Source of the DNA: an uncultured Planctomycetota bacterium | GTDB lineage: Bacteria > Planctomycetota > Planctomycetia > Isosphaerales > Isosphaeraceae | Length of the DNA: 64,000 nucleotides | NCBI GenBank assembly: GCA_963737655.1 | Contig: CAVTTN010000002.1 | Coordinates: 608,001-672,000, forward strand | Direction of reading: 5' to 3' | Shown here: positions 12,536-21,494 of the stretch, in pieces | How positions within the stretch are numbered: position 1 is the stretch's first letter | How the letters are laid out: the number at the start of each line of letters is the position of its first letter | Position numbers and translations under genes: made by a program | The notes under the pieces: generated by a model | The model's input: only the letters and a program-made list of their open reading frames with translations | What the model was told of the DNA's origin: nothing | Database searches by the model: none

Positions 12536-12927
12536 TCAATACCGGCCGCCGCCGCCGCCGTAGCCGCCACCGCCGCCGCTCCGGCCGCCGCCGCCGCCGC
12601 CGTAGCCGCCACCGCCGCCGCTCCGGCCGCCGCCGCCGCCGCCGCCGTAGCCGCCGCCGCCGCCACCGCCGCCGCGAGACTCACGGGGCTTGGCCTCGTT
12701 CACCGTCAGGTTCCGGCCGTCGTGGTCCCGGCCGTTGAGGCCGTCGATGGCCGCCTGGGCCTGGGCCTCGGTGTCCATCTCCACGAACCCGAATCCCTTC
12801 GAGCGGTTCGTGTCCCGGTCCACGATGATCTGGGCATCTGCACTGCTCCGAAGGGGGCGAACAACGCCTCCAGGTCGGACTCGTTCATGTTGTAGGTGAG
12901 GTTGCCGACGTACAGCTTCTTGGCCAC
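12536..12927 (-). CDS. RRM RNA-binding protein with Gly-rich tail; apparent frameshift at about 12836
   Basis: MAKKLYVGNL (RNP2) in one frame; DRDTNRSKGFGFVEM (RNP1), NLTVNEAKPRE and GGGGGYGGGGGGRS repeats in the next. Confidence 0.88.
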
Positions 12928-13286
12928 GGAATGCTCCGAACGAAAGGCAGGACGACCCGCGAAGGCGCTTTCTGGGTCGAGGAGAAAGGGGCCTCGTGCG
13001 AGGCCCGAGCGGAAGGAAGGGCGAGAGAGGGGAGCAGGGGACCGGACCGTGAGGAGCCAGCGTTGCCGCTCGGTCGTCGAACCAACCAATCAGAGCATGA
13101 CAAAAACACGGGAAAATTGATAGCCCAATTCCGCTCCGGATTCTCGGAATGGCCCCGCGACGGCCCGACGGCGATGGACAGGCGGGGCGTCCGGGCGTAG
13201 CCTGGGAGGTCCGGGCGGCCCGTCTCGGTCCCCGATCGCCGGGGACAACGCCGATCGCCGGCCCTCTGCGGATCGGCGGCGCCCCG

Positions 13287-17078: not shown

Positions 17079-18005
17079 TCATGGCCCGGGTCGGTCGCTC
17101 GCCAGGGTCGCGAGCCGGAGGGCAAGCCGCGATCGGGCCTCGCGATCGAGCCGATCGAGCCGGCGGGCCTCGTTCAGGCCGATCCGGGCGAATCGGAGCG
17201 TGGTCCCCGGTCGGGCCTGGCCGAGGCGGTCCAGATCGGCCGAGATCACGTGGGCCACGACGGGATACCCGCCCATCGTCCCGCAGGCCGGGCCGAGGAG
17301 GATCGGCCTTCCTCCGGCGATCTGGACCGCGCCGAACCCCACCGGGGCCGACAGCCGGGACGGGTCGGCCCGGACCTCGATCCGGGGCCCTTCGAGCCTC
17401 AGACCCACCCGGTCGGACTCACTCTCGACGACGAAATCGCCCACTTCGAGGCTCCCGGAGACGACGGCCGAGGCATCCGGCCCCTCGACCACGCGAATCG
17501 GGCCGCCGCCCGGGTCGGGGACGACGACATCCCGAAGGCGACGGATCGGCGTCCCTCCCGGATTGGCCGGGAGGACGGTGCCGGGCGTCAGGGCGTCCTC
17601 GCTCGATCGGCTCCCCAGGATTGCTTCGCTCGTCCAGCCTCCCCGGACGGCCAGAAAGAGCCTCGCCCCCGAGGCCGAGCCGCCGATTTCGAGCCGATCC
17701 CCGGCGAGGAGGCCGATCGTCTGGGGAATTCGCAAGGGGATCGCCCGGCCGGCCGCGGTCTCGACCCTTGCGACCATCGGGGCCCCGGCCAGGGCGAGGG
17801 CCAGCGGGATCTCGGCAAGGAATCGGCCTCCCAGGAGGCAGAATTCGACGACCGCGGCCCCGGGGGGGTTGCCGATCAGGGCGTTCGCCACGGCCGCGGA
17901 GAGCCGATCGAAAACGCCCGAAGTGGGGACGCCCGAGTGCCGGAACCCCAGCCGGCCGAGGTCCTGGATCGTGGCCCTCGGGCCGATCGTCAGGATTCGG
18001 AGCAT
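17079..18005 (-). CDS. pxpC: 5-oxoprolinase subunit C (allophanate hydrolase subunit 2 family)
   Basis: TIQDLGRLGFRHSGVPTSGVFD, ANALIGN, GSRS, SDRVGLRL, GAVQI, TMGGYP. Confidence 0.88.
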   Translation of the reverse strand: MLRILTIGPRATIQDLGRLGFRHSGVPTSGVFDRLSAAVANALIGNPPGAAVVEFCLLGGRFLAEIPLALALAGAPMVARVETAAGRAIPLRIPQTIGLLAGDRLEIGGSASGARLFLAVRGGWTSEAILGSRSSEDALTPGTVLPANPGGTPIRRLRDVVVPDPGGGPIRVVEGPDASAVVSGSLEVGDFVVESESDRVGLRLEGPRIEVRADPSRLSAPVGFGAVQIAGGRPILLGPACGTMGGYPVVAHVISADLDRLGQARPGTTLRFARIGLNEARRLDRLDREARSRLALRLATLASDRPGP

Positions 18006-18709
18006 GGTTCGGCGAAGCTCCGGGGGGCGATCCCGAGCGTCCTGAGCGTGGAGAGGACGAGGTCCGCCAGGGCGACCGAATGGGGGTTGTCGCCGTGGAG
18101 GCAAATCGTCTCGATCCCCCGACTCACGAGCCGGGCGACCTGATCGGCGATCTCGGCCGGGTCGTCCAGGACGGCCCCGGGCTGGTCCCTCGGCACCAGC
18201 CGGCCGTCGGGCGAGTAGCGGCGATCGGCGAAGCCCTCGCCGACGAATCGGACCCCCTGGAGGGCGGCCTCGGCCTCGACGGCCCCTCCGGGGAGGCCAA
18301 GGACCGGCAAACCCAGCTCTTTCGCCGCCTCCACGACGGCTCTCGCCACGTCTGGATCGCGCTGGGCCCGGTTGTAGAGGGCGCCGTGGGGCTTCAGGAA
18401 CGCGATTTCCACGCCCTGCGGCTCGGCGATCGTCTTTATATGACCGACCGAGGCGACGATCAGCCCCCGGACGTCCGGCTCGTCGCGGTCTCGGCGTCCG
18501 AACCCTTCGCGGTCGGGATAGCCGGGATGGGCGCCGACGGCCACCCGTCGGGCCTTCGCTTCTTGCAACGAGGCGGCGATGGTGTCATCGTCGCCGGCGT
18601 AGCCTCCGCAGCAGAGGCTCGCCGAGGTCACCCGGGCGAGCAACGGGACGTCCCAGGGGCAGCCTTCGCCGAGGTCGGCGTTGAGGTCGATCGAGGCGGA
18701 GGCGGGCAT
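17990..18709 (-). CDS. pxpA: 5-oxoprolinase subunit A (LamB/YcsF family)
   Basis: IDLNADLGEG, VGAHPGYPDREGFGRR, LKPHGALYN, EGFADRRY, TICLHGD. Confidence 0.92.
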   Translation of the reverse strand: MPASASIDLNADLGEGCPWDVPLLARVTSASLCCGGYAGDDDTIAASLQEAKARRVAVGAHPGYPDREGFGRRDRDEPDVRGLIVASVGHIKTIAEPQGVEIAFLKPHGALYNRAQRDPDVARAVVEAAKELGLPVLGLPGGAVEAEAALQGVRFVGEGFADRRYSPDGRLVPRDQPGAVLDDPAEIADQVARLVSRGIETICLHGDNPHSVALADLVLSTLRTLGIAPRSFAEPCSES

Positions 18710-18712
18710 CGG

Positions 18713-19995
18713 TCAGTCCTCGCCTTCGAGTTCCAAAACGCCGTCTTCCACCATCCGCCGGGCCTGGTCTTCCAGCTTCCCCCGGATCGCGTCGAGGTTC
18801 GCCGGGAGCGAGCCGGCGGAGATCTCGCGGAGGGTCCGGAGAGCGGCCGTCGGCTTCTGGCGGTCTCGGAGGAGGACCTGGGCGAGCTTCAGCTTCATCC
18901 GGGGGGCGGCGGAGGAGTCCGGGTACTTCCGGCAGAAATCCCTCATCAACGGGATCGACGCGGCCTCCGCCTTCCTCGCGTGACATTCCTTGATCAGCGC
19001 GAGGGCGTCGGATTCCGACGGCCAGTTGGGCAGGACGCGGGCCGATTTGTCGAAGGCCGAGACCGCTCCGTCGAAATCCTCGGACTCGATCAATCGGCGG
19101 ACCTTGGCGACGGCCTTCGCCGCGCGTTCCTCGTCGGTCGGGACCTCGGCGTCCGCCTCCGCCCGGCGGGCCCGCCGGGCGTCGTTCTTCTTCTGGCGGT
19201 CGAGCCGTTGTTCGCGGAGGGTCCAGTCCTTCGCGAGCCGCTTTCGCTGCTTCCAGAGCGACAGGACGTCCCACCCTTCGCAATCGACGAGGTTCGCCTT
19301 GAGCATGGCCCAGCCGATCGCCGCGCCCCCGACCGCCCCGGAGAGCTTCGCCACCTCGGCCACCACGTCGAGGCCGCCGATCCGGTGGGCCCCGGTGAAC
19401 CCGTGGATGGCGAGGAACAGCAACTGTTCGCCGATGTAAAAGGCCGCCACCGTCGTGTAAGGCAGCTCCAGTTGATGGACGGACACGCGGAACCCGAACA
19501 TGAAGATCCAGGTGCAGCTGAGCTCGTTCCTCGGGCCCAGACCATGCAGATCGCCAGCAGCCCAAACACGATGCTCGCCGCGCCGGACGACGTCCCCTCC
19601 AGCCCCGACCTCAGCAAGACGATCTGCGTGAGCGCCGAGCTCGCGACCCCGATGGCGAGGTAGATCAGGGAATACCGGAGCATCCCCAGCTTCCCCTCGA
19701 CCACGATCCCGAAGGCCCAGAGGAAGACCATGTTGCCGATCAGAGAGCCGATCCCCGGATGGACGAAGTTCGACGTGACCCACTGGAGGGGGTGCAACCC
19801 GTCGCCCAGGGTCAGCGCGTAGCGGTCGAACGTCGAGCCCGCCGAGGGCTCGTCCAGGTCCTCCTCGGCGGAGCTCCGGGCACGGTCGGCCCAGAGGATG
19901 CCGAAGAAGCACGCCAGGTTCAGGACGATCAGGGCCACGGTGGCCTTGGGCCAGTGGTAGAGCGGAGCATCGGTCCCGGTCGGGATGATGAGCAT
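18713..19995 (-). CDS. Rhomboid-family intramembrane protease with C-terminal TPR-like domain; apparent frameshift at about 19534
   Basis: MLIIPTGTDAPLYHWPKAT, QWVTSNFVH..LIGNMVFLWAFGIVVEGKLG, GAASIVFGL. The C-terminal frame continues PRNELSC... into a helical region. Catalytic Ser/His positions look degenerate. Confidence 0.75.
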
Positions 19996-20165
19996 CCGAC
20001 GTTCCTCCTCGCCGATCGATGTCCTCTCGGGCCAGCCGCCTACTATACTGGCCTTCGCGGTCCCCGATCAGGGGATTCGGGGAGATCGGGGCGAGATTTC
20101 GTCGTCAGGAACCGCATCCTTGTCCCCACTCCCCGGCCGGGGACGAGATTTGCTGCCGCTCGATC

Positions 20166-20828
20166 TCACCGAGCCTCTCGCAGGAGCCCGCCGAGAAGGC
20201 GTTCGAAATCGTCGCGGCCGATCGGCTCGAACCGAAGACGGTCCCCGGATCGGATCGGGAAGAGGCCGAGGCGGAGGTCGGCGATTTGCAGGGGGGTCCG
20301 GCCGAGGAGGTGCCATCCTCCGGGGGAATTTCTGGGATAAATGCCCGTCTGCCGGCCCGCGATCGCCACCGAGCCCGCGGGCACCCTCGGCCGCGGGGAC
20401 TCCCGGCGAGCGAGCCCCTGCAGTTCCGGGGGGAGGTCGCCGGCATAGGGAAAACCGGGCTGGAACCCCACCGCCATCACGTCGTAATCCTTCGAGGCGT
20501 GGAGCGCGATCAGGCGATCCACGCTCATCCCCAATCGGCCGGCGATCTCGGCGAGGTCGTCGCCGTCGTAGAGGACGGGAATTCGATGGAGAGTGCCCGC
20601 GGAGACCTCGGCGGCCGTCGGCTCGACCCCTCGCAGGCGTCCACCGATCCCCTCAACGTCGTCGGCGTCGGGTTCGAGGAACACGCCCACGGATCGGTAG
20701 GCGAGGACGTGCTCAAGAACTCCCGGGACGGGGTGCGCCCGGAGCCCCGAGGCCCAGGCTCGGGCGAGGGCCTCGGTCTCGAACCGGGCGAGGAACGCGC
20801 GATCTCCGAGGGGGGCGAGGTCGATCAT
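20166..20828 (-). CDS. pxpB: 5-oxoprolinase subunit B (allophanate hydrolase subunit 1 / KipI family)
   Basis: PLGDRAFL, IPVLYDGDDL, GFQPGFPY, RRESPRPRVPAGSVAIAGRQTGIYP.NSPGGWHLLGRT. Confidence 0.92.
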   Translation of the reverse strand: MIDLAPLGDRAFLARFETEALARAWASGLRAHPVPGVLEHVLAYRSVGVFLEPDADDVEGIGGRLRGVEPTAAEVSAGTLHRIPVLYDGDDLAEIAGRLGMSVDRLIALHASKDYDVMAVGFQPGFPYAGDLPPELQGLARRESPRPRVPAGSVAIAGRQTGIYPRNSPGGWHLLGRTPLQIADLRLGLFPIRSGDRLRFEPIGRDDFERLLGGLLREAR

Positions 20829-21415
20829 CCGTCGCTCGGAGACGGCCACCAGGGCGGGGGGGCGTCGAAGTATCGGGGATCGTCCAGGCCGAAGGCGTCG
20901 GCCACCCGGTTGAAGAAGGCGAAGAGGGCCGTGATGTAGACGGCCTCGGCGATCTGAGGGTCGGTCCAGCCGACGTCTCGGAGGGTCTCGACGTCCTCAT
21001 CGGTGGTCTTGTAGGCGTGTTTCGTGACTTTCTCGGCGAACCGCAACAGGGCGCGCTCGGGCTCGGTGATCGGGGCCGCTTCGATATCGGCGGCCGCGAG
21101 GCACTTGTGGACCTCGGCGATGGGTTCCTGCAACTGCAGGAAGAAGGCATGCGCCCCGGTTCAGTAAGGGCACCGATTCAGGGCCGAGACCAACGTGGCG
21201 ATCATTTCCTTCTGGCGGTACGCGAGATGCCCGTCACCAAAGTGGACGCGGTCGGACATGGCGACGACGTCCCGGAAGAAATCGGGGCGAAGGCTGAAGC
21301 ACTTGAGGATGCCGGGGACTTCCGGTCGGCCGGGGTTGGCGGCGAGCCACTCGCGGTAGGCGAGCGCGGCGTCTCCCGAGGCATCGTCCTCGCGGACCCA
21401 GCGAATCCTGGCCAT
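20825..21415 (-). CDS. AhpD/carboxymuconolactone decarboxylase family peroxidase-related protein with in-frame TGA (candidate selenoprotein, CxxU)
   Basis: ORFs 21161..21415 and 20825..21133 share one frame. Read-through gives KEMIATLVSALNRCPY-(TGA)-TGAHAFFL...ERALLRFAEKVT...DVETLRDVGWTDPQIAEAVYITALFAFFNRVADAFG, a complete AhpD-like protein. Confidence 0.82.
21125..21142 (-). promoter_or_regulatory. Candidate bacterial SECIS hairpin
   Basis: mRNA UUCCUGC-AGUU-GCAGGAA: perfect 7-bp stem, apical loop starting 26 nt after the UGA, with G at loop position 2 followed by U. Confidence 0.6.
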
Positions 21416-21494
21416 CGCCGTCCCCCTCGCTTTACAATGACCGATTGAGGCCGATCGGCCCCGATCCTATCGCGAACCGAGCCGGAGGGGAATC

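Follow-up and report, generated by a model that had tools for sequence, protein, structure and literature searches.

A probable AhpD-like selenoprotein gene in an uncultured planctomycete whose assembly likely lacks the piece carrying tRNA-Sec

RESULTS AND DISCUSSION

An AhpD-like gene with an in-frame TGA

The window, a stretch of 64,000 nucleotides from the assembly of an uncultured planctomycete of the family Isosphaeraceae (GCA_963737655.1, contig CAVTTN010000002.1, positions 608,001 to 672,000), carries on its reverse strand a gene for an AhpD-like protein that is interrupted by a TGA codon (Table 1). The first-pass annotation of this DNA had described two open reading frame fragments that share one frame and are parted only by this TGA. 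Translation from 21415 to 20825 of the reverse strand gives exactly such a single frame, made of 84 amino acids, the TGA, a further 111 amino acids, and a stop (196 amino acids in total). The internal TGA lies within the motif ALNRCPY*TGAH, and its assignment to the second Cys of the AhpD/CMD motif (NRCPY-U-TGAH) is correct. The part of the frame after the TGA contains no Met. In the interval from −20 to +30 around this codon, none of 17 loci with the same TGA has an SD-like motif (0/17), so that neither an ATG nor an SD-like motif speaks for a separate second gene. Ordinary genes in this genome end at TGA, and so does the AhpD-like gene itself.

Table 1 Features of the AhpD-like locus (window positions) and intron-bearing tRNA genes elsewhere in the genome (positions on contig C2)
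Feature	Position	Strand	Basis
AhpD-like (TIGR01926 / PF02627 CMD) gene, probable selenoprotein of 196 aa, motif C82-P-Y-U85-T-G-A-H89	20825..21415	−	Frame, profiles, fold
Codon 85, TGA, inferred selenocysteine codon	21161..21163	−	TGA in 17/17 close genomic matches; Cys in 94/120 database homologues
Ribosome-binding site, purine-rich, 5 bases ahead of the ATG at 21415	21421..21428	−	Read from sequence
SECIS-like hairpin UUCCUGC-AGUU-GCAGGAA, 7-bp stem, 4-nt loop AGUU at 21135-21132	21125..21142	−	Fold, conservation
PF02682 (CT_C_D) gene, downstream; its ATG overlaps the AhpD-like stop by 4 bases	20166..20828	−	Profile match
Intron-bearing tRNA genes: CAT (Ile2-like) and the apparently only Lys(TTT)	C2:3573862-3574193, C2:3626925-3627297	+	

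Behind the AhpD-like gene, positions 17079 to 20828 of the reverse strand hold genes that match PF02682, PF03746, and PF02626, which we take to be pxpB-, pxpA-, and pxpC-like, respectively. A frame-shifted rhomboid gene (PF01694, about 18713-19995) lies between the presumed pxpB- and pxpA-like genes here, and in at least five relatives the pxpA-like gene is found close behind the pxpB-like one. Of 12 same-family loci, 11 have the PF02682 gene next to the AhpD-like gene; none of the five loci from other families does (0/5). Shared descent accounts for this pairing as well as function does. A literature search found no publication that treats AhpD, selenocysteine, and oxoprolinase together. The first-pass annotation had also held that the other lesions of the window are indels; the two frame-shifted neighbors covered here fit this claim. 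Elsewhere in the window (12536-13089, reverse strand), a gene that, judged by eye, encodes an RRM-like small RNA-binding protein ending in a Gly-rich tail is broken into two frames, probably by an assembly indel.

Cys and TGA alternate at one column, and the TGA form follows selB

Among the best 120 of 655 database homologues, the alignment column of codon 85 holds Cys in 94 proteins and W in 26. The W is most likely a TGA translated with a code in which TGA stands for Trp. For the main W group, 326 metagenome loci were confirmed, and the best 80 of these, near copies of one clade, all have TGA, and not TGG, in the DNA. Moreover, the database protein P0016, which is of the W form, is nearly the same as the protein of locus L031, whose DNA has TGA. 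W-form entries (P0016, P0070, P0120, and others) would thus mark unannotated selenoprotein genes. With a Cys-type query, 18 genome loci were retrieved, of which 17 have TGC or TGT at this column and one gave no alignment.

The panel comprised 41 genomes (this genome and 40 relatives). Matches at E <= 1e-20 occur in 17 of them, in each case with TGA at column 85. The first-pass annotation had expected homologues to alternate between Cys and TGA at this position, and both are indeed found there. The gene selB is present in 27 of the 41 genomes, among which are all 17 closely matching ones, and the same threshold yields no match in any of the 14 selB-negative genomes, although these counts are not independent because the genomes are kin (many are incomplete, too). 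A search with the family model gave 24 matches over the cut-off; 21 of them contain TGA and come, without exception, from selB-positive genomes, whereas two of the three that are free of TGA come from selB-negative genomes. For these family-model matches, the position of the TGA was confirmed for G002, G010, and G028 but not for G008, G017, and G023. One family match with a TGA in a selB-negative genome (G005) was set aside, as its CxxC is intact and the TGA lies elsewhere. The panel also contains more distant AhpD-like CxxU genes (L277, L278, and L279, from G002, G010, and G028); in G028 two lie within 6 kb.

In a quick tree, the gene studied here groups with its TGA-containing counterparts from G001 and G003. 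Eight Cys proteins are nested among the TGA forms of this quick tree, which hints at Sec-to-Cys changes.

A conserved SECIS-like hairpin follows the TGA

The perfect hairpin that the first-pass annotation had placed behind the TGA, with its loop 26 nt downstream, was recovered where it was said to be (Table 1); counted from the TGA, the loop begins at base 26. The rules for bacterial SECIS elements set out in the legend to Fig. 2 of PMC13188914 call for a loop of 3-9 nt, an upper stem of 4-16 bp, a G in the first two loop bases, a spacing of 16-37 nt, and an MFE of <= −7.5. The hairpin here conforms to these rules as the legend gives them, with a loop of 4 nt, a stem of 7 bp, a spacing of +26, and −22.8 kcal/mol for 60 nt. 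For this 60-nt fold, z = −1.96, and 8 of 200 shuffles were equally stable. Of the 150302 TGA triplets in the genome, 2438 (1.6%) have, 16-37 nt downstream, a perfect 7-bp stem whose loop carries a G among its first two bases; at 25 of the 150302, the spacing and loop size are exactly those seen here. By itself, the hairpin is modest evidence for a SECIS element.

Comparison across genomes adds to this evidence. The loop starts at +26 in 17 of 17 TGA loci, with the loop sequence AGUU in 16 and GGUC in one, and from this conservation it follows that the hairpin is more than chance. Codons 92-96, in the hairpin, are nearly frozen (TTC in 17/17, CAG in 16/16, and TTG in 16/16); at Leu columns outside the hairpin, the top codon is used in 33-57% of rows. 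Phe-168, far from the hairpin, is also encoded by TTC in 16/16. Two loci with TTG at codon 93 also have CAA at codon 96, so that the base pair is kept. Covariation is weak: in an analysis of 15 of the 17 loci there is one double change, a level that 39 of 500 shuffles also reached. A loose SECIS test is passed by 17/17 and 80/80 of the TGA loci in genomes and metagenomes, respectively, but also by 9/17 Cys-form loci.

Family, fold, and active-site residues

The read-through protein scores 101 bits against TIGR01926, above the cut-off of 81.8, and also matches PF02627. Two related families of AhpD-like selenoproteins are matched only weakly, and the protein is a member of neither: the scores are 63.5 bits against a cut-off of 175 for NF041238 (AhpD_rel_CFYUT, a 357-position model) and 29.1 against a cut-off of 310 for NF053654 (YciW-related (seleno)protein). 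A fold predicted with a 96-sequence alignment has a pLDDT of 95.6 across the TGA, and its similarity to 2prr and 6k40 (TM 0.80) points to an AhpD-like fold; a single-sequence fold (pLDDT 44.6) was discarded. The solved Cys-form structures 2prr, 6k40, 2oyo, 3c1l, and 2pfx have the all-helical fold in common with the model (TM 0.78-0.80) but are only 24-31% identical to it, and they have a second Cys where the protein here would have Sec.

All five relay residues of the two-helix motif (Glu, Cys, Tyr/His, Cys, and His) have counterparts in the protein, namely E70, C82, Y84, U85, and H89, and E70, Y84, and H89 are invariant among the 96 aligned sequences. In PA0269 (2o4d), for which a proton relay of Glu36, Cys48, Tyr50, Cys51, and His55 is described in PMC3141380, the spacing E-x11-C-x-Y-C-x3-H is the same as here. 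The AhpD of Mycobacterium tuberculosis (1knc and 1gu9) shares the two-helix catalytic motif (its Glu118, Cys130, His132, Cys133, and His137). However, its overall similarity to the model is low (TM just 0.47-0.52), Tyr here stands for its His132, and ahpC is absent among the scanned neighbors of the gene here.

AhpD-like CxxU selenoproteins have been reported before. A report from 2005 gives 27 sequences (PMC1088965), and one from 2008 gives 299 sequences under “AhpD-like 1” and COG2128 (PMC2398784). In Table 1 of a 2026 review (PMC13188914), the entry “AhpD-like protein, TIGR01926, CxxU” stands under “Predicted with high confidence,” among families not experimentally verified. BSepDB has a page for the AhpD-like family and includes planctomycetes among the genomes screened (PMC13326102), and full Sec gene sets have been published for planctomycetes such as I. 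pallida (PMC4807772). The gene here has the CxxU position, a SECIS-like hairpin after the UGA, and Cys homologues in common with the TIGR01926 family, and it passes the model cut-off. It does not differ from the known family in kind; what distinguishes this member is that it comes from a planctomycete clade and stands before a gene that we take to be pxpB-like. The gene is, then, part of an already described, predicted selenoprotein family.

The genome has selA, selB, and selD, and the assembly has no recognizable tRNA-Sec gene

The first-pass annotation had proposed that, should the genome lack selABCD, another route for reading UGA would be needed. In a profile search, selA (506 bits), selB (302 bits), and selD (341 bits) all score over their cut-offs. 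The frames of selA and selB are open, and that of selD contains one in-frame TGA (CAG*AGK), which has a hairpin of its own. Directly before selD lies another CxxU gene (YCAL*GYE; C2 about 3220300-3221800, reverse strand), which is presumably SelW/Rdx-like. The proposal of another route consequently falls away for selA, selB, and selD, which are present and intact; selC alone is absent from the assembly, and from an assembly that is without other essential genes.

Searches of the assembly with Rfam, ARAGORN, BLAST, and profiles, both whole and in halves, revealed no tRNA-Sec gene; the BLAST queries and profiles were built from the tRNA-Sec genes of 20 relatives. The best Rfam match to tRNA-Sec (49.5 bits, cut-off 47) is tRNA-Leu(TAA), and BLAST and the profiles matched nothing but chance sites and other tRNAs. 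When its thresholds were lowered or introns were allowed, ARAGORN gave hundreds of chance calls, and a low-threshold call near a site suggested by synteny with G016 is coding-like sequence. Half-profiles were tried because two other tRNA genes of this genome contain introns (Table 1); their best scores, 12.8 and 16.1 bits, compare with 27-72 bits for true halves. The inserts of these two genes lie in the anticodon loop, measure about 260 and 300 nt, and look by eye like group I introns. An Rfam scan of the selA, selB, and selD loci yielded nothing relevant. A tRNA-Sec gene is present in 25 of 26 selB-positive relatives, including 3/3 from the same genus, and the one exception is a genome that is 79% complete. 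The position of selC varies among the relatives, with no conserved site, and no tRNA lies in this genome beside the gene that flanks selC in G002. An odd tRNA-like gene was noticed at C2:52385-52469 (reverse strand), which scores 39.5 bits on the Rfam tRNA model. Its D and T arms are normal and its CCA end is encoded; the anticodon arm is long and irregular and shows no clear anticodon.

Essential genes are also missing from the assembly

The assembly is rated 87.7% complete. The ends of its main contig (7.6 Mb) do not overlap, and the contig stops right after what looks by eye like an integrase gene. In about 1.3 Mb of the relative G002, 839 genes were called, of which 265 have no good DNA match in this genome and, of these, 247 have no good protein match either. 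Several of the 146 that were scanned, out of the 247, belong to the core set, including rpsB, tsf, pyrH, and frr. Matches to rpsB were found in all 14 control genomes and in no part of this one, and tsf, pyrH, frr, trpD, rph, and argB have no tblastn match in it. In a DNA search for the initiator tRNA, variants were recovered from G001 and G002 and none from this genome or G003; a first search pattern had matched a coding region, and a second is invalid alone because it missed all four genomes of the genus. A cell cannot do without rpsB, tsf, pyrH, frr, or an initiator tRNA. The absence of such core genes therefore means that DNA is missing from the assembly and that the gap is real. We conclude that the absence of tRNA-Sec likely reflects a missing piece of the assembly and not a new decoding route, and other claims of absence for this genome should be treated cautiously. 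Long intergenic inverted repeats with AT-rich centers, possibly miniature mobile elements, were also seen on C2 at about 101200-101330 and 381330-381560.

Alternative readings of the TGA

The strain could have lost selC recently, in which case the selenoprotein gene would be orphaned and its UGA would now just terminate translation. We consider such a loss very unlikely. The failure to find selC, the lack of a tRNA at the site that corresponds to the flank of selC in G002, and the variable position of selC among relatives all agree with it. Against these observations stand an assembly that is not closed and is without essential genes, the undecayed state of selA, selB, selD, and three TGA genes, and the retention of selC in the selB-positive relatives, the sole exception being the incomplete genome mentioned above.

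Even less probable is that UGA is read by another route, be it a non-canonical tRNA-Sec, a UCA tRNA that inserts Cys or Trp, or the odd tRNA-like gene on C2. Just as improbable is the fuller version, in which an organism truly without canonical tRNA-Sec keeps selA, selB, and selD intact, along with three or more UGA-recoded genes, and reads UGA by an unrecognized tRNA, for example, the product of C2:52385-52469. Such a route would account for the failure to find a canonical selC, for the one unexplained tRNA-like gene with its long anticodon arm, and for the W in 26 of the 120 database homologues. Yet the W entries are TGA codons in the DNA, consistent with translation under a TGA = W code, and TGA terminates ordinary genes here, the AhpD-like gene too. 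The search for a tRNA-like element with a UCA anticodon came up empty, a generic scan having given one hit that lies in coding-like sequence, and the gene at C2:52385-52469 has no UCA loop. Moreover, selB and the SECIS-like hairpin are present. Finally, a sequencing error or nonsense mutation (TGC or TGT to TGA), or two separate small genes, can be dismissed, although frame-shift errors do occur nearby in the assembly. Conservation of the TGA already refutes this reading: the codon recurs in 16 further genomes, each assembled independently, and, in a related clade, in all 80 of the metagenome loci examined (the best of 326). Besides, the TGA falls in the middle of the catalytic motif, and the second half has neither a Met nor, in any of the 17 loci, an SD-like motif near the TGA.

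A predicted selenoprotein and its possible function

The first-pass annotation had called the gene a selenoprotein gene, and this proposal is supported by the alternation of Cys and TGA, the hairpin, the presence of selA, selB, and selD, the linkage to selB, and the lack of a start for a second gene. The internal stop almost certainly encodes selenocysteine. Very probably, the locus is one gene for a 196-amino-acid AhpD-like planctomycete selenoprotein, with UGA read as Sec and with the tRNA-Sec gene in DNA that is missing from the assembly.

We envision that SelB would bind the hairpin and bring Sec-tRNA(Sec) to the UGA, as in the established bacterial pathway outlined in PMC13188914, the tRNA-Sec being encoded in the absent DNA. 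Under the same pathway, when selenium is scarce the UGA would stop translation and leave an 84-amino-acid fragment that lacks the catalytic helix. The analogy to M. tuberculosis AhpD and PA0269 suggests that E70, C82, Y84, U85, and H89 may form a proton relay. By the same analogy, the C82/U85 pair would cycle between a reduced and a selenenyl-sulfide state, reducing peroxide or the disulfide of a partner, and Sec would supply the more reactive atom of the pair. On this likeness, the protein may have a peroxidase or AhpC-reducing activity.

Nothing here should surprise a selenoprotein specialist, and the main value of the finding is for annotation: as the first-pass annotation anticipated, gene callers split the AhpD-like gene, or they render its TGA as Trp. 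For the family, which is only predicted so far, the clade contains both Sec and Cys forms that are close to each other (about 60% identical) and could be compared directly, and the conserved neighbor, presumably pxpB-like, is a lead to the role of the AhpD-like selenoprotein.
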